Part shown: in pieces, positions 1 to 6,242 of the stretch | Layout of the letters: each line of letters opens with the position of its first letter | Position numbering within the stretch: the first letter of the stretch is position 1 | Source: a virus | Taxonomy: Duplodnaviria; Heunggongvirae; Uroviricota; Caudoviricetes | DNA: 6,242 bases | Virus record (IMG/VR): IMGVR_UViG_2703718819_000019 | Reading direction: 5' to 3' (one strand) | Notes under the pieces: generated by a model | Database searches by the model: none | What the model was told of the DNA's origin: nothing | Seen by the model: only the letters and a program-made list of their open reading frames with translations | Translations under genes and position numbers: made by a program

Positions 1-210
1 GCGCTTACGCCAGCCCGCAGGCAGAGCACCAGAAAAATAAAACTCACTGATTACGTCCATGGCAAACGGCTTTAAGCGCAATCCGGCAGCGCCTGTATTT
101 TTCAGTAATGCCCGAAGAATACTGTTGCGTAGCGGTAAAACAGTCTGTTGATATTTGGTGAAATATTTATTTGTCTGCACACGGTCTAATTTGAAATAAA
201 AATATGCCAT
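1..210 (-). CDS. hypothetical protein, N-terminal part only (ORF continues past the window start)
   Basis: Reverse-strand ATG at 208-210 preceded by a purine-rich Shine-Dalgarno-like stretch (AAGGAACAGGA, plus 213-227 reverse-complemented). My manual translation MAYFYFKLDRVQTNKYFTKYQQTVLPLRNSILRALLKNTGAAGLRLKPFAMDVISEFYFSGALPAGWRKR runs 70 codons to the window edge with no stop. Same direction as the upstream operon. Absent from the supplied ORF track because it has no stop inside the window. Confidence 0.4.
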   Translation of the reverse strand, partial: MAYFYFKLDRVQTNKYFTKYQQTVLPLRNSILRALLKNTGAAGLRLKPFAMDVISEFYFSGALPAGWRKR

Positions 211-307
211 ATATCCTGTTCCTTATTTTCAGTTTACAGGCGCAGGCAGTCCCCTGACGCGAGCGCCATAATTAAAACGAAGTGATATTTAATTGATTAA
301 TGCGGTG

Positions 308-838
308 TTATTTATTCAGTCCGGCGTCCTGTTCAAAAGGCTCGACATAAAAACTTTCAGCGCCTTTATTCACCTTGATACCGGCAATGCCTTTCACAGC
401 ATCCGGCTCCGCCAGGACGGCTTCCTTGTTCACTTCCTCTTTCGTGCGGATGAAACGCTCAAGCCCCATACGGCGCAGCATTTCAATCACACCTTCCACA
501 TCACGGCTGACGCTGCATGATGGCGTTCCCAGCCGCCATGACACCGTTCCGGTGGTCAGATTGGCTGTTTTGGTTTTGCCGCCGTTCGTCAGCTCATCAC
601 GGTTGGTTTTGCACCAGTCCTGAATCCCTTTAAAAAGCACTTTGATTTGCTTTTTAAGATTTTCAATCTGCGGCGTATAACGGGCGGTGATTTCTGCCAC
701 TTCGTCATTCATCGCCGTTTCCAGGCGCAGCGCCTCTCGCTGAATATCGCCCAGGGTGCGGATATCGCGGCTGACTTCTTCGCGGGTCTGCGGTGCGGCC
801 TCGGCTACAGCCTTTAATTTTGTAACGCGTTTTGCCAT
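308..838 (-). CDS. gam: Gam-like host-nuclease inhibitor / Ku-like double-strand DNA end-binding protein
   Basis: 176-aa ORF. Segments such as LGDIQREALRLETAMNDEVAEIT, WCKTNRDELTNGGKTKTANLTTGTVSWR and RFIRTKEEVNKEAVLAEP are near-collinear with phage Mu Gam (about 174 aa) as I recall it. Shine-Dalgarno AAGGA lies 8 nt upstream of the ATG (836-838). TAA stop at 308-310. Confidence 0.9.
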   Translation of the reverse strand: MAKRVTKLKAVAEAAPQTREEVSRDIRTLGDIQREALRLETAMNDEVAEITARYTPQIENLKKQIKVLFKGIQDWCKTNRDELTNGGKTKTANLTTGTVSWRLGTPSCSVSRDVEGVIEMLRRMGLERFIRTKEEVNKEAVLAEPDAVKGIAGIKVNKGAESFYVEPFEQDAGLNK

Positions 839-849
839 TTTGTTTTTCC

Positions 850-1143
850 TTATTGCAGTGTGCCTGATGCTTTATGCACGCGGTGGCGTTTAATGATGGC
901 ATCCGCTCCAAAAGACTGTGCAGATGCCTGAAATTCCGCTGAGAGAAACTGAATAATTGCAGGACTGTGATACTGGAGAATACTTGCATAAACGTCACAG
1001 AGTGACGTCGGGCTGTTATCCGTATCACGTTCTGTTTTCACATCCACTCCAATCTTTTCATGCACTTCAACACAGTCATTGCCTGCCAACTTTTCGTCAT
1101 GCGAAACATGATTAAATTCAAAAATAACGCGTACTTTGCTCAT
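850..1143 (-). CDS. small hypothetical protein, paralog 2 of an MSKV..IFEF/Y family
   Basis: The track ORF starts at 1170, but the internal ATG at 1141-1143 (MSKVRVIFEFNHV...) has an upstream AGGGG Shine-Dalgarno-like motif and begins 5 nt after the stop of the preceding ORF. Its N-terminus matches the neighbouring ORF 1148..1420 (MSKVVRIIFEYKEHV) at protein level and about 24 of 27 nt. TAA stop at 850-852. Confidence 0.6.
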   Translation of the reverse strand: MSKVRVIFEFNHVSHDEKLAGNDCVEVHEKIGVDVKTERDTDNSPTSLCDVYASILQYHSPAIIQFLSAEFQASAQSFGADAIIKRHRVHKASGTLQ

Positions 1144-1147
1144 GGAA

Positions 1148-1420
1148 TTACCCCTGCTGATTAAATTCATTACCTTTAATAACCCCGGAACGCATGCTCA
1201 TATCTTTCATGAGCGCACTGGCTTTCATTGCCACAAGTTCAGCAAAGTCTCTGCTTTCCGCGAGCATAACCACCCCAAAAATCATGGCGGGTCCATCACC
1301 TTTCTGCTTTATCCTGGTTGAACGTATGTCCAGACTTACCCCCATGCGCACTGTTCCATCAGGGTTTTTATGGATAACGTGCTCCTTGTATTCGAAAATA
1401 ATGCGTACGACTTTACTCAT
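1148..1420 (-). CDS. small hypothetical protein, paralog 1 of an MSKV..IFEF/Y family
   Basis: 90-aa ORF. ATG at 1418-1420 preceded by GAGGA with a 7-nt spacer. The start overlaps the stop of the upstream ORF as ATGA (1417-1420), indicating translational coupling. Shared N-terminal motif with ORF 850..1143. Confidence 0.6.
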   Translation of the reverse strand: MSKVVRIIFEYKEHVIHKNPDGTVRMGVSLDIRSTRIKQKGDGPAMIFGVVMLAESRDFAELVAMKASALMKDMSMRSGVIKGNEFNQQG

Positions 1421-1698
1421 CCTCTGGTCCTCGTTCTGTTTGGATAACTGACCCGGCGTCTGACCTCACGGCAGAACCGAATCATGGCATTAAAGGCTTC
1501 TTCCTCCGTCACCGCTTCCGGTATCCCCGGAACCAGTAACTGCTCCTGTTCATCACGTCCATGACGCGCCATAACCTCAATCACATGCCGTACCGTGGCA
1601 GGCTTTCCGGCAACTATCGGCAATGCACCTTCCGGCAGGACGTAACCAAACTCAATAAGACCACTCGACCACGCCCATGCAATGAGATTTCGTTTCAC
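1417..1698 (-). CDS. small hypothetical protein (GTG start)
   Basis: 93-aa ORF. The start codon is GTG (reverse complement of 1696-1698), preceded by a strong Shine-Dalgarno GGGAGGTG (plus 1701-1710 reverse-complemented). It lies in the same operon, 1 nt after the stop of the upstream ORF. No recognisable domain by eye. Confidence 0.5.
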   Translation of the reverse strand: MKRNLIAWAWSSGLIEFGYVLPEGALPIVAGKPATVRHVIEVMARHGRDEQEQLLVPGIPEAVTEEEAFNAMIRFCREVRRRVSYPNRTRTRG

Positions 1699-1699
1699 C

Positions 1700-1954
1700 T
1701 CACACCTCCCAGCAAACCGTGCAGCCGCTGATGCGGGTGGCCTTCACACGGCGGCGCAGGCCGTTGGTCTGTATGGTGATTTCAATTTCACCGGTTCCCT
1801 GCACGTTGCCTACCGGCGGCGTGGTTTTCAGTGCAAAACGTTGCGGATAGCGCTTACTGCGTTCCAGTACCGCACCGGCAAGTTCGGTCAGACGGCGCGC
1901 GCTGTTCAGGGAGTCGAATAAATTCATTTTGTTACCGCAGGATTGCATATTCAT
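1700..1954 (-). CDS. small hypothetical protein
   Basis: The track ORF is 1700..1966. I prefer the in-frame ATG at 1952-1954 (MNMQSCGNK...) because GAGGTG sits 6 nt upstream, whereas the ATG at 1966 has no Shine-Dalgarno. The C-terminus carries a CxxC pair (CTVC). TGA stop at 1700-1702. Confidence 0.45.
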   Translation of the reverse strand: MNMQSCGNKMNLFDSLNSARRLTELAGAVLERSKRYPQRFALKTTPPVGNVQGTGEIEITIQTNGLRRRVKATRISGCTVCWEV

Positions 1955-1966
1955 ATAACACCTCAT

Positions 1967-2194
1967 TTAGCTGACTTGTTTCGCACCAACAGAACGGCAT
2001 ATTCCGCTGTAAACGTCTGTCGCACCTTCGCGATCAAGTCCGGCAGATATCACCATTCGTGTGCGGTCATTAAATTCAAAAAGTAAATCGCCACATTCTT
2101 TATTTTCGGCCAGTGAAATCACCTTCACGTTATCGAAATTAACCAGGTAAAAGCGTCCGTAAATATCAGGAATATTAAATACCGCCATAATCAC
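1967..2194 (-). CDS. small hypothetical protein in the position occupied by kil in phage Mu (immediately downstream of B)
   Basis: 75-aa ORF whose ATG overlaps the B stop as ATGA (2191-2194). It contains an internal LLFEFNDRTRMV segment related to the N-termini of ORFs 850..1143 and 1148..1420, and shares an identical 14-nt string with the former (2069-2082 vs 1111-1124). The Kil analogy is positional only; I cannot verify sequence similarity. Confidence 0.5.
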   Translation of the reverse strand: MIMAVFNIPDIYGRFYLVNFDNVKVISLAENKECGDLLFEFNDRTRMVISAGLDREGATDVYSGICRSVGAKQVS

Positions 2195-3123
2195 ACCTGT
2201 GAGAGTAATTCAGGGTTGGTATAAACCTCTTTAAAGGCCGCATTAATATGTTTTTCTGTCAGCGCCGCGCCTTCACCGCTGGCGGTGAGCCACGCCTGGT
2301 TAAGCGTATGTGTCAGAACGCGTAACGCTCCCGGCTTTTCAGCGATAGCCTGCATGACGGCCAGCTCGGCCTCACCACTGATCTCCCACGCCCTGGCAAT
2401 GGCCAGCACATCCGCCTTTTTGGCCTTGCGAAGTTGTTTTGTACGGGCAAGACGGCTGAACAGGCGCGATAAATCATCAAAGGCGCGGCGTCCACCTTTA
2501 AACAATCCGCGCGGGTTACCAATAAGCACCATCCCGATCCCCGTGGCGTCCTGAATTGCCCGGAGTTGCTCCAGACCGTCAATACCAAGATGATCCGCCT
2601 CATCCACAATCACCAGTCCACGCGTTCCCATCAGGCGACGGCGGATGGCGCGGGATAATGCCCCTTTGTTCGCGCGGGTGTAATCAATCCCCAGCGCATC
2701 GGCCAGCTCCAGCAGACACTCCGTGACGCTGGAGTGCGCGGGTGACAGGGTGATCATCCAGGTGTTTGGTTGCTCCTGGCAGTAATTACGGGCAGTGGCC
2801 GTTTTACCCACACCCGGTACGCCCACAATAACGTTAATACAGCCCATCAGACGAACCGCCTGAAACAGTGCGCGCAGCTCCTGGACTGTCTGCGTTTCCA
2901 CAAACTGCGGCGGTTCCGGCAGTGCGCTTTGTTTATTCCAGTTCTCATACCAGGAACGCAGGGAAGCAGCCACAGCAGCGTTATCGCCTTTATATTTTCC
3001 CTTACGGAAAGCCGATAATGTGCCGTCGGAAATTCCCGCCTCTCTGGCGATGGCATACTGCGTCAGTACGCCGCCATCAATAAGTTCATCAATGGTCTTG
3101 ATTACATCGTTAATATCAGTCAT
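2191..3123 (-). CDS. B: MuB-like AAA+ ATPase, transposition target-DNA activator
   Basis: 310-aa ORF. N-terminal HTH-like region (LTQYAIAREAGISDGTLSAF), Walker A GVPGVGKT, Walker B LVIVDEADHL, and overall collinearity with phage Mu B (312 aa) as recalled, including the PEPPQFVETQTV and KKADV..IA.AW segments. Shine-Dalgarno GAGAGG 8 nt upstream of the ATG at 3121-3123. Confidence 0.92.
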   Translation of the reverse strand: MTDINDVIKTIDELIDGGVLTQYAIAREAGISDGTLSAFRKGKYKGDNAAVAASLRSWYENWNKQSALPEPPQFVETQTVQELRALFQAVRLMGCINVIVGVPGVGKTATARNYCQEQPNTWMITLSPAHSSVTECLLELADALGIDYTRANKGALSRAIRRRLMGTRGLVIVDEADHLGIDGLEQLRAIQDATGIGMVLIGNPRGLFKGGRRAFDDLSRLFSRLARTKQLRKAKKADVLAIARAWEISGEAELAVMQAIAEKPGALRVLTHTLNQAWLTASGEGAALTEKHINAAFKEVYTNPELLSQV

Positions 3124-3194
3124 ATTATTAACCTCTCATTTGATACCTTGTTTAATCAAATAACCTGAGTCGCCGCTCGGGTTATTTTTTTATT

Positions 3195-5303
3195 TCAGGC
3201 CAGCGGGTCATTTTCTTTTAATTTCGCTTCCAGCAACTGCAATCCCCGCTGGAAATTACGCTCGTATTCTTCATCAGGTTCATCGTCAGCGACCGGTTGC
3301 TGAACGGTCACCGTATTACCCACAGGGCGGTATATGTTTTCCAGCCAGGGCCCCTGTGGCTTGTGCTCCAGCACGTTGACAACCTCATCCTCGGCATCAC
3401 GGATTTTTTCCTCTGCGCGTTTACGCATGCCTTTAAGGCGCTGCTGCTGTTTATGGTATTCCGCGCTGACCGGGAAGGCTTCGCGTTTATTGCCGTCCCA
3501 TACCGCCTCGCAAATCACACTGCCATCCAGGCGACGCACGGTAATTCGCTCAGCATCATGAATGTCATAGCTGATAAGCACCTTACGACCATGCTCGTCA
3601 CGCAGCTCGGGCGCGTAGTAAATATTATTCAGCCAGCGTATTTCACAGCGTCTTACAGGGCGCTCCACCATCGGCCGGAACATATCCCGCAGCTCAACAT
3701 CGGACAGCCATTCAATTTCCGTGTCCTCTTCTGCCAGGCGTTTTTTTCTGAACTCCGCCGGGCTGTAATGCTTCCCGTTCGGCTTCATGGGTAATTCATC
3801 GTGCGGCCGGTTGTTGTACCACTCAACACCATCACGAATGGCATCAATCAGTTCAGACCAGGACGGTAAATCACGCATCGCTGACTGCTGCCGGGCGTTC
3901 AGCCGCTTGCCCTGTTGCAGGGCAGTGAATGCCGAGCGTAAATCGCGGTTGGTTTTGCGTAACGTCTCGCGATCTGCACCTTTCCCGAAATAGGTGCGGT
4001 ATCTGCGGGCTATGCGCATCGGTAATGTGCGGTTAAGCCGTTCGATAATGCCCCGTCCCTGCGGATTACCGGCAATCCCGGTCGGGTGATTAATCCCCAG
4101 TCGCGGTAGTATCCCCACAATCTCCTTATCCAGGATGTCGGCGGTTTCCCCGGAGCCATTATCCGAGTAATACAGAAACGGTTTGCCGTGATGGCGAATG
4201 CCGTGCTGTATAGCACCGGCTACGGCGAAAACATTTTCAGCCAGGTCAAGGCTCCAGCCCACCACAAAGCGTGTACCGCCATCGATAACAAAGGTTACTT
4301 CCGGTGCAAATGGCCGCCCGTGAACCGGGTGCCTGCATTTCAGCTTCATGCCGTGACCGTCACCAATCCAGACATAGTTCACCGGCATTCTGGACCAGTC
4401 GCGGCGCGTGAATCCCTCAAGCTGGCGGTATTCACTGCCGGTCACCCGGCCTTTTTGTTTCACCACTTCCGGCAGTTTCTTCATTGCGCGGCGAATGGTG
4501 TCATAAGACGGCATGATATCGAGCATATAAGGCTCATCAGCGTGCCGGTGCTGCCATTCAGCGACAAAATCCTCGTAAGCCTCGGTCATTGGTCGGCCGT
4601 TTGACTGGCGATACTGCGCCAGAAATTCGGGCAGCCAGTTAATATCTTCGGCTTTTATTTCCTGGCGCTTACCCGGTGCCAGTAAAAGCAGGCGTTCAGC
4701 GGCGTTCTGCGCCTTGTTAAAGGCCGCAATCCAGCGTTTCAGCGTGATTTCACTTAACGCGCGGCTGTTTCCCTTTTTGGCGTTCGCCGTCTCAACCATT
4801 GCCACAATGCGCTCGTCCAGCTGCGAACGTGCCAGGTTGTCAACGATAAACCGGATAGCCTTCGCACAGCTGAAACCAGGTTGTTGCGCGACTTTCAGAA
4901 CTTCGCTGACGATCGCGATTCGTGCATCAGCCACCTGGCGCTGGTTTTCAGTCAGGGCATTGAGGCGTTCGACCATCAGTTGTGGTGATCCGCGATATGC
5001 CTCCACCGCATCAACCACGGCAGGTGAGCGTCTGGCCTTTGTCACCACCGGAGCCGGTGATTCATCGGCTTTTTGCGTCATCAGTTGCAGGGCGTAGCGT
5101 TCACGTACTGCCTGCTGAACAGTTAAAGGCAAAGCACCTATTTCACACTCTAAAACTTTCCCTTTTACCCCTGGTTTTAGCCGCGTTTTCCACGCCTCCC
5201 TCTTTGCTTTTTTGTGCAGACCTGCCAAAGAACTAGGTAGGTCACTGAATGAAATCAATTCAGTCATTGCAACCCACATATTTCCTCCGCGCACGTCGTT
5301 CAT
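3195..5303 (-). CDS. A: MuA-like DDE transposase
   Basis: 702-aa ORF. N-terminal winged-helix-like motif DLPSSLAGLHKKAKREAWKTR (the enhancer/operator-binding domain in MuA). Central DDE candidates in WIGDGHG, YYSDNGSGE and GRGIIERLNRT. Size and position match Mu A. The true start is probably the ATG at 5277-5279 (MWVAMTEL...), which has GGAGGA immediately upstream; the track start at 5303 has no Shine-Dalgarno. TGA stop at 3195-3197. Confidence 0.93.
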   Translation of the reverse strand: MNDVRGGNMWVAMTELISFSDLPSSLAGLHKKAKREAWKTRLKPGVKGKVLECEIGALPLTVQQAVRERYALQLMTQKADESPAPVVTKARRSPAVVDAVEAYRGSPQLMVERLNALTENQRQVADARIAIVSEVLKVAQQPGFSCAKAIRFIVDNLARSQLDERIVAMVETANAKKGNSRALSEITLKRWIAAFNKAQNAAERLLLLAPGKRQEIKAEDINWLPEFLAQYRQSNGRPMTEAYEDFVAEWQHRHADEPYMLDIMPSYDTIRRAMKKLPEVVKQKGRVTGSEYRQLEGFTRRDWSRMPVNYVWIGDGHGMKLKCRHPVHGRPFAPEVTFVIDGGTRFVVGWSLDLAENVFAVAGAIQHGIRHHGKPFLYYSDNGSGETADILDKEIVGILPRLGINHPTGIAGNPQGRGIIERLNRTLPMRIARRYRTYFGKGADRETLRKTNRDLRSAFTALQQGKRLNARQQSAMRDLPSWSELIDAIRDGVEWYNNRPHDELPMKPNGKHYSPAEFRKKRLAEEDTEIEWLSDVELRDMFRPMVERPVRRCEIRWLNNIYYAPELRDEHGRKVLISYDIHDAERITVRRLDGSVICEAVWDGNKREAFPVSAEYHKQQQRLKGMRKRAEEKIRDAEDEVVNVLEHKPQGPWLENIYRPVGNTVTVQQPVADDEPDEEYERNFQRGLQLLEAKLKENDPLA

Positions 5304-5505
5304 ATCTAGTAGGCCAAATAACTTGCGGCTCTACACCTATAGCCCTAGCAATAATCTTTTCACCTTTAGGGTAGGGAACTCGCAAAGCATTACCCAAAGT
5401 CCTAGGCTGCAAATTATTTTCCCTTGATAAACGTGACAAATTGGTATCGCGTTTTTCTAAGGCTGCCTTTATATCGGCGGAAGACCAATCTTCAATAAGA
5501 CTCAC
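5260..5505 (-). CDS. ner: Ner-like DNA-binding transcriptional regulator (Ner/Nlp family)
   Basis: 81-aa ORF. The PYPKGEKIIARAIGVEPQVIWPTRY segment matches the conserved core of Mu Ner and E. coli Nlp (..WPKGE.IIA.ALG..P..IWPSRY). GTG start at 5503-5505 preceded by AGGGGG with a 5-nt spacer. It is the first gene of the early operon and its 3' end overlaps the 5' end of A. Confidence 0.85.
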   Translation of the reverse strand: MSLIEDWSSADIKAALEKRDTNLSRLSRENNLQPRTLGNALRVPYPKGEKIIARAIGVEPQVIWPTRYERRARRKYVGCND

Positions 5506-5540
5506 AATGGCCCCCTGTGTACTTTCTATGGCAAACTTTA

Positions 5541-5579
5541 TTACTCATGTGTGCTACTCTATTGAGTTACTCACTAGTG
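5541..5579. repeat. three tandem 13-bp direct repeats (TTACTCATGTGTG / CTACTCTATTGAG / TTACTCACTAGTG), candidate operator or iteron-like sites
   Basis: Read directly from the sequence: the TACTC core recurs at 5542, 5555 and 5568, an exact 13-bp phase, and 8 of 13 positions are invariant (yTACTCwnnnGnG). A fourth TTACTC lies at 5644-5649. Confidence 0.5.
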
Positions 5580-5589
5580 TATGTTTGAT

Positions 5590-5618
5590 ATATTAGATAT
5601 TAACTAAGTAAATATCAA
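5590..5618 (-). promoter_or_regulatory. candidate early promoter (Pe-like) for the ner-A-B operon
   Basis: On the minus strand, -35 TTGATA (plus 5613-5618), a 17-nt spacer and -10 TAATAT (plus 5590-5595), about 80 nt upstream of the ner GTG. The -35 hexamer overlaps the IHF consensus match, so the two assignments compete. Confidence 0.35.
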
Positions 5619-5625
5619 CCGGTTA
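5613..5625 (+). promoter_or_regulatory. candidate IHF binding site
   Basis: TATCAACCGGTTA matches the IHF core consensus WATCAANNNNTTR at every defined position, with an AT-rich tract immediately 5'. In Mu, IHF binds within the operator region and stimulates Pe (established knowledge). Confidence 0.4.
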
Positions 5626-5735
5626 ATTTCAAATTCCTTAGATTTACTCGATATCTATTTGTTTTATATTAGATTATTTTTGAAATAAACCACAGAAGAG
5701 ATATGAACAAAAGTTAATATCAAATGGAGTTTGAT

Positions 5736-6242
5736 ATGATCCTTGACCAAGAATGGATCCTTGCCAGTGACTTGTTGGGGGTTGGAGGTCTTCCTTCATC
5801 TCTGGCTGGGCTTCATAAACGAGCAAAAAATGAAGGATGGGAAAAACGTTCGGTAACTACACCCGGTATCAGAGGGAGAGCATTTGCCTACCGTTTAAGC
5901 GACTTACCTGCACATGTAGTTTCCATCATTACAGGTAGTGCAGAAATAAAACACCAAGCCCCTAAAAAGAACGGTGGCAATAGCGAGTTGCTCGAACTCA
6001 TCGACACCTTGAACCAAGAAGAGCAAGAATTAGTTATTTACACCTTGAGAAGGAAAGGGGTAGAAAAATTGCTGGAATTCTGCAATCAAGAGAATCAAGA
6101 GCTGATCGCTTTAACAGGTATTCGACGCCTGGCAGCATTGAGCCTCAATAATTTATCAGATCAAAAGGTTAGAGAGATTTTCGAGGGAGATGAAACCAAG
6201 GATCATCATTTCAATCTAACCCATAAAGAAGCCAAAGCGTAA
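5736..6242 (+). CDS. c: Mu repressor c-like protein (Rep/CI of transposable phages)
   Basis: The track ORF is 5724..6242. GGAG at 5726-5729 sits 6 nt before the ATG at 5736, so 5736 is the more likely start. The N-terminal motif GLPSSLAGLHKRAKNEGWEKR parallels the transposase N-terminus (DLPSSLAGLHKKAKREAWKTR), the known Mu Rep/MuA shared DNA-binding domain. Divergent orientation from ner. TAA stop at 6240-6242. Confidence 0.8.
   Translation: MILDQEWILASDLLGVGGLPSSLAGLHKRAKNEGWEKRSVTTPGIRGRAFAYRLSDLPAHVVSIITGSAEIKHQAPKKNGGNSELLELIDTLNQEEQELVIYTLRRKGVEKLLEFCNQENQELIALTGIRRLAALSLNNLSDQKVREIFEGDETKDHHFNLTHKEAKA

Follow-up and report, generated by a model that had tools for sequence, protein, structure and literature searches.

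A conserved 39-bp repeat array, probably the operator of Ner, in Mu-like prophages of a new immunity type

Introduction

In phage Mu, the operators O1-O3 and the enhancer (IAS), which lie in the intergenic region between ner and the repressor gene c, are bound by c and by MuA I-alpha, i.e., by a pair of related DNA-binding domains, with O1 and O2 doubling as the transposition enhancer. The operator of the second regulator of this region, Ner, was reportedly described for Mu by Tolias & DuBow in 1986 and by Goosen & van de Putte in 1987, and that of the related phage D108 by Kukolj et al. in 1989. We located the corresponding dyads directly in the two phage sequences and checked the GenBank annotation for Mu. 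In Mu (AF083977) the dyad at 1029-1058, which we take to be the Ner operator, consists of two inverted copies of ANPyTAPuCTAAGT with a 6-bp spacer (AGCTAGCTAAGT-ttttac-ACTTAGTTAAAT); it follows immediately on the Pe annotation (991-1028, which bears the remark 'part of Ner binding region'), covers +2 to +31 of Pe and is located 41 bp before ner. In D108 (GQ357916) the dyad at 996-1025, which we likewise assume to be the Ner operator, is a perfect 11-8-11 palindrome formed by two 11-bp inverted repeats, CCGTGAGCTAC, 8 bp apart, and is placed after TTGATT-17-TACATT and 24 bp before ner.

A structural view of how proteins of this family read DNA is available for EnrR of Edwardsiella (PDB 7F9H/7F9I; PMC9023278), a Ner-family monomer that pairs closely on DNA. 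In the crystal structure of the EnrR-DNA complex two monomers sit close together on C-TATA-G; the G of either strand is read by Arg47 and the central TA by Arg55 (PMC9023278).

Here we analyse a window of 6,242 nucleotides (the whole stretch of IMG/VR virus record IMGVR_UViG_2703718819_000019), in which an array of three 13-bp repeats lies between the ner and c genes of a Mu-like prophage, and we consider which of the three DNA-binding proteins of the prophage, Ner, c or the transposase A, the array would serve.

Methods

Relatives of the prophage were gathered via the c protein and their loci were then retrieved, giving E. coli, Salmonella and metagenomic sequences. Ner-homologue loci (n = 241) were obtained by scanning GTDB genomes, IMG/VR and metagenomes with Ner profiles. 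Complete E. coli genomes (5426) were used for determining the occurrence of the module and of the control-region DNA.

Results and discussion

Prophage and immunity module

The window is the left (early) end of an E. coli Mu-like transposable prophage in reversed orientation, with B, A and ner on the minus strand, followed by the control region and by c on the plus strand (Table 1). The gene layout and the domain matches thus agree with the original prediction that the array is located in the c-ner control (operator) region of a Mu-type phage. The PF02316 domain is common to c and the N-terminus of the A transposase, as in Mu, with 42% identity over 55 aa. The 3' end of ner overlaps the RefSeq start of A by 20 nt (5260-5279), which suggests translational coupling.

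Table 1. Features of the window and their coordinates.
Feature	Position	Strand	Description
B	2191-3123	-	AAA and Phage-MuB_C
A transposase	3195-5279	-	Mu-transpos_C and N-terminal Mu DNA-binding domain
ner	5260-5505	-	81 aa; GTG start (5505); Pfam HTH_35 (PF13693), E 6.7e-27
c-ner control region			230 bp, non-coding, between ner and c
Array unit 1	5541-5553	+	TTACTCATGTGTG; register kept in relatives
Array unit 2	5554-5566	+	CTACTCTATTGAG; in the dyad reading, centre of the whole array between 5561 and 5562
Array unit 3	5567-5580	+	TTACTCACTAGTG (5567-5579) and the following T, which completes the third 16-bp pseudo-palindrome half
D108-matching 30 bp	5547-5576		20/30 positions identical to the D108 Ner operator CCGTGAGCTAC-TTTATAGC-GTAGCTCACGG
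Predicted Pe	5590-5618	-	-35 TTGATA (5618-5613), 17-nt spacer, -10 TAATAT (5595-5590); inferred start ~5583
TNGAWATNWAC, Pe cluster	5594-5604, 5608-5618, 5622-5632	+, -, -	Spacing 14 bp; together span the -10, spacer and -35 of Pe and the DNA upstream; O2-like candidate operator for c/MuA-I-alpha
TTACTC, claimed fourth copy	5644-5649	+	Same position as the -35-like hexamer of a weakly predicted promoter on the plus strand
TNGAWATNWAC, c-proximal cluster	5680-5690, 5713-5723	+, -	Adjoins the c start; candidate O1-like
Repressor c	5736-6242	+	168 aa from ATG 5736 (RefSeq start); Mu DNA-binding domain PF02316

Over bases 1-5117 the window shares 96.7% identity with a Mu-like phage that sits within an Stx2c phage (LC727881), whereas bases 5118-6242 form a different, lower-GC immunity module, which takes in ~54 codons from the start of A together with ner, the control region and c. 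Relative to this otherwise 96.7%-identical phage the immunity module has therefore been exchanged as a block at ~5117, and from the position of the mosaic joint it follows that c and the operators are accompanied by the N-terminal DNA-binding segment of A, a situation also seen between Mu and D108. The same holds in every relative found, where Ner, c, the N-terminus of A and all the repeats move as one module. No natural swap (the same Ner with a different repressor) was present in the Ner-profile scans of GTDB, IMG/VR and metagenomes or in a Ner protein search.

The proteins of the module are only distantly related to those of the described phages: c is 26% identical to the c of D108 and 32% identical over 53 aa to that of Mu, and Ner is 56% identical to D108 Ner and 53% to Mu Ner. 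Among the deposited phage genomes, identity to the proteins of this group does not exceed 60% for Ner or 32% for c. Together with the exchange of the module as a block, these values bear out the suggestion, made from the repeats at the outset, of a distinct immunity specificity. The module is present in 13-14 of the 5426 complete E. coli genomes, and prophages of this immunity group occur in Shiga-toxin-producing E. coli, including O157:H7, and also in Salmonella. Three copies of the module that were examined are at three different insertion sites: about 300 bp past the c stop the neighbours are a truncated torZ, a truncated hypothetical gene and a lambda-like tail gene (L001, L002 and L003, respectively), which is consistent with recent random transposition.

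It is noted that the near-identical phage in LC727881 (626-1595) has, in its alternative immunity module, a different Ner of 82 aa and, as the repressor, a 201-aa ORF with a different N-terminus and a C-terminal part that is 42% identical to residues 84-154 of the window c. Upstream of its ner it has repeats of its own, GCGGATAT twice at 12-bp spacing, with the flanks TTACCCG/CGGGTAA (893-934). Note also that in a metagenomic Mu-like element (L243, 1388-2381) the partner of a Ner homologue of 126 aa (56% identical) is a repressor of the XRE type (HTH_3) rather than one with PF02316; the array is absent from this element, which is too distant to inform on the separation of Ner and c.

Anatomy and conservation of the array

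The original prediction described three abutting 13-bp repeats with a common TACTC core and a G at both position 11 and position 13, and this is exact at 5541-5579, where the core occupies positions 2-6 (TTACTC....G.G). The pattern YTACTCNNNNGNG has three matches in the window, all of them in the array, compared to 0.16 expected, and three matches were reached in none of 200 shuffles; since the pattern was built post hoc from the same three copies that it counts, the independent test is conservation.

The invariants of the unit are self-complementary (T1/A3, C4/G13 and C6/G11), and with T1, A3, C4 and C6 on the one side and G11 and G13 on the other the array is therefore readable in three ways. 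From its letters it may be a run of three direct repeats, a set of three 16-bp imperfect palindromes (TTACTC-N4-GAGTAA) that overlap and have their centres 13 bp apart, or a long D108-like dyad centred on unit 2. In the palindrome reading the middle stretch of each 16-bp element also matches the unit pattern on the opposite strand, and the stretch of unit 2 can be read as a unit on the minus strand too (5557-5569, TAACTCAATAGAG). In the dyad reading, pairing around the unit 2 centre involves 9-12 of 18 positions, and the three direct repeats fit the same data. The sequence by itself does not choose among the three readings.

In seven distinct relatives the array aligns with the three-unit 13-bp register kept and without indels, and the comparison with the operator regions of related prophages, which had been proposed as a check on the repeats, thus came out in their favour. 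In the 21 units pooled from the seven distinct sequences, C6, G11 and G13 are present in 21/21, C4 in 20/21, A3 in 19/21, and T1 and T2 in 17/21 each; positions 1-6, 11 and 13 are rich in information, and positions 7-9 and 12 carry next to none. The C4-to-T variants of the unit are found in L242 and L010. A more distant phage (L106, Ner 55%) has a related array with 13+12 spacing directly after its promoter. Among the 241 Ner loci the triple CNC-N4-GNG at a 13-bp period is found in 18, always 74-78 nt upstream of ner and always with a Ner at least 66% identical, and in none of the ~220 other Ner loci. In the 5426 E. coli genomes the DNA of window positions 5506-5640 has matches only in these prophages (14 genomes), and no annotation was found over it there.

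It may be asked whether the array is simply a chance repeat in AT-rich intergenic DNA, in view of the post hoc pattern and of the GC content of only 30-38% in the control region. This is extremely unlikely. The register is free of gaps although c is only 36-66% identical among the relatives (Ner is 63-81% identical over the full length and 66-84% in local alignments), the three invariant positions C6, G11 and G13 are kept while positions 7-9 and 12 vary freely, and in the E. coli genomes the control-region DNA is confined to these prophages. With the register conserved and the pattern confined to the clade, chance is therefore practically excluded, and the array is real, conserved and functional-looking.

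Position relative to the early promoter

The predicted early promoter Pe is the sole sigma-70-like site that is conserved in all eight aligned relatives, having the form TTGAT(A/T)-17-TAA..T with invariant hexamer columns. The array (5579-5541) is bracketed by Pe (5618-5590) and the ner GTG (5505). It begins 10 nt past the -10 hexamer and ~4 nt past the inferred start, would span ~+4 to +43 of the predicted ner-A-B early transcript and ends 36 bp before the GTG.

The predicted transcription of the array and the self-complementarity of its invariants could mean that it acts as RNA, i.e., as a structured or protein-binding element in the ner-A-B 5' leader. This is very improbable, because the RNAalifold consensus of seven leaders has only -1.4 kcal/mol with a covariation term of +0.06, no Rfam match appears at E up to 1, and the possible stems are of 3 bp with a mismatch, the symmetry being typical of DNA operators. 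A cis-regulatory leader RNA was thus rejected for want of a covarying structure and of an Rfam family.

Similarity to the D108 operator and the Ner reading

Neither strand of the window has a better match to the D108 Ner operator than the 30 bp at 5547-5576. Their 20 identities were reached in 0/5000 shuffles of the intergenic region and in 0/5000 shuffles of the operator, and among the upstream regions of 208 other Ner homologues, which give an empirical background, the maximum is 19/30. The match is uneven within the clade, with 20 in the window group, 19 in Salmonella and 14-18 in L004, L010, L011 and L012. In a multiple alignment of the window, L011, L012, L106 and D108, the -35, the -10 and then the array or operator are collinear, so that the array is placed after Pe as the D108 dyad is placed after its promoter; in the dyad reading of the array both are dyad-centred. 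The two differ in their build: in the window clade three well-formed 13-bp units, with TTACTC conserved at the head, take the place of the single perfect palindrome of D108. In D108, the G..G and C..C invariants recur with a period of 13 bp to either side of the palindrome (993-1031), which hints that the three-unit register may be older than the window clade. The Mu Ner site is at the same place in the circuit and serves the same protein family, but has no sequence similarity to the array. The only Mu-like half-site of the window, ACTTAGTTAATA (5609-5598), was considered as a Ner site and rejected: it is situated in the Pe spacer rather than within the array, it stands alone without a second half-site, and its conservation is partial.

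From the anatomy of the repeats, their conservation, their position relative to the conserved promoter-like site and their similarity to D108, we infer that the 39-bp array is probably the operator of Ner in a new immunity type of Mu-like prophage. As judged by sequence it is most likely an ordinary but so far undescribed form of an element known from phage switches, and a homologue of the Ner operator of D108. Ner also parallels the array in its conservation, remaining 63-81% identical over the full length where c drops to 36-66%. Based on this reading, Ner, the Cro-like early regulator encoded directly downstream on the minus strand, would bind the array, and since the array begins a few bases past the Pe start the bound Ner would block the initiation or the escape of the ner-A-B early transcript, resulting in negative autoregulation of the transposition functions. 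The likely mode would be the assembly of several Ner monomers side by side on the DNA.

The comparison with EnrR bears on this mode. The window Ner matches 1NER/1NEQ (Mu Ner) and EnrR 7F9H (E 3.6e-16). Arg47 of EnrR, the residue that reads G on both strands of C-N4-G, aligns with R35 of the window Ner, a residue invariant in the clade, and every unit of the array has the invariant C6-N4-G11; Arg55 aligns with V43, and the N4 core of the array is not conserved. With the free N4 core and the aligned R35, it is plausible by analogy that one pair of Ner would be accommodated per unit. The argument from the arginine is a weak one, because at the position of R35 D108 Ner has Ser and Mu Ner has Thr; outside the clade no clear correlation is seen between Arg at Ner position 35 and C-N4-G repeats. 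It should also be mentioned that EnrR is a chromosomal regulator associated with the nucleoid, and that its site has a short AT-rich core, CTATAG, unlike the array of the window Ner.

A further question is whether the array, or its unit 3, would at the same time be the -35 part of a c promoter that is back to back with Pe, so that the binder controls both promoters; this would complement the Ner model. For the location of Pc there are two or three weak candidates, none of them decisive. The candidate in question, the plus-strand GTTACT (5566-5571)-17-TATATT (5589-5594), is kept in position in six of the eight relatives and would give a c leader of 135 nt, and Mu Ner, which represses both Pe and Pc in a published model (PMC11310862), is a precedent for such a double control. 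However, its -35 has only 3/6 positions of the consensus, the conservation of its -10 is already accounted for by the overlapping Pe -10 on the opposite strand, and in the window the candidate TTTACT-16-TATATT nearer c scores higher (9/12). The back-to-back arrangement is thus possible but rather unlikely.

Similarly tentative is a more detailed picture, in which six Ner monomers would bind as three EnrR-like close pairs, one per 16-bp palindrome at 13-bp distance, and form a short cooperative filament that would block the escape from Pe and cover the -35 of the back-to-back c promoter; the 13-bp register would then be ancestral and the 11-8-11 operator of D108 its degenerate remnant. We regard this picture, too, as doubtful.

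A second repeat family and the repressor

The original prediction had assigned contacts of the repressor, of Ner and of MuA to the array together. The operator of c and of the N-terminal domain of MuA, O3-like or as part of the transposition enhancer, is the reading to be weighed against that of Ner. It can call on the domain common to c and A, on the co-segregation of the array with c in all relatives and on Mu O2, which has direct repeats ~15 bp apart (CTTTTCAGTAAT/CTTTTTAGTAAG). Moreover, Mu O3 adjoins or overlaps the Ner site, so that c could also touch the DNA of the array.

One point against it is a second family of repeats, TNGAWATNWAC. This sequence is present in five exact copies in both orientations within 5506-5745, compared to ~0.03 in local shuffles. 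All relatives have the copies at the same positions, and in the most distant ones, L011 and L012, TTAAC has changed to TAAAC in concert. Statistically it is a stronger c/MuA candidate than the 13-bp array. Located over Pe and near c, as expected of O1/O2, it has the pattern of several copies in both orientations overlapping Pe that is expected of O1-O3/IAS, whereas the array has three tandem units downstream of the inferred +1. The role of the Mu O1-O3/IAS sites, which are in the same intergenic region and serve the same pair of related DNA-binding domains, is thus matched by TNGAWATNWAC and not by the array, and the former are likely, by their sequence and arrangement, to be the operator-enhancer sites of c and MuA. 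The unit motif of the array occurs nowhere else in the control region and shares no similarity with TNGAWATNWAC, so that c would need two specificities, and the array is aligned with the D108 Ner operator.

Since two of the three DNA-binding proteins share a domain, the simplest assignment is that of TNGAWATNWAC to c and MuA and of the array to Ner. We therefore consider it quite improbable that the array is a c/MuA operator. Of the three contacts that had been placed on the array, that of Ner is favoured by the alignment with D108 while those of c and MuA are better placed on TNGAWATNWAC; as the main contacts of the repressor or of the MuA enhancer the array is contradicted by its position downstream of the inferred start, by the lack of copies elsewhere in the control region and by the D108 alignment.

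If the array is the Ner operator, it is the likely cis-element of the lytic-side regulator of an uncharacterised Mu-like immunity group. The two families of cis-elements in the control region can now be told apart, giving clean targets for studying the switch of the prophage to transposition, and the natural operator variants form a series from which the reading of DNA by monomeric proteins of the Ner family, among them the virulence regulator EnrR, could be worked out. For Mu itself, these results leave the accepted view of its regulation as it is.

Other elements of the control region

Two smaller elements had been connected with the array. A fourth TTACTC copy is indeed present 77 bp from unit 3, but it is judged to fall outside the array, as it is TTGCTC in relatives that are ~97% identical over the module. 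It falls in the least conserved stretch of the control region, and the hexamer occurs six times in the window compared to 1.84 expected, six being reached in 2/200 shuffles. Likewise, the palindrome CACTAGTG of unit 3 is found at 5572-5579 but is not conserved, being absent in L004, L010, L011 and L012. Both the fourth TTACTC and the palindrome are probably incidental.

Between the array and the ner start there is a block, CTTTCTATGGCAAACT (5522-5537), that is nearly invariant in all eight aligned relatives and is absent from L106 and D108. Its conservation is explained neither as a Shine-Dalgarno sequence, an RNA helix or coding DNA nor, by eye, as a promoter, a LexA site or a sigma-54 site, none of which fits. 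The IHF core consensus WATCAANNNNTTR has a single match in the window, TATCAACCGGTTA at 5613-5625, which overlaps the Pe -35 and of which the WATCAANNNNTT part is retained in most relatives; the match may merely reflect two adjacent copies of TNGAWATNWAC.

Finally, we note that in Salmonella relatives (L006, 2530-2817; P0029 and P0034) an ATG inside unit 1 of the array is in frame with ner, and gene callers predict from it a Ner of 95-96 aa. This extended Ner is probably an annotation artefact, because the same ATG of the window starts a short ORF that is out of frame.
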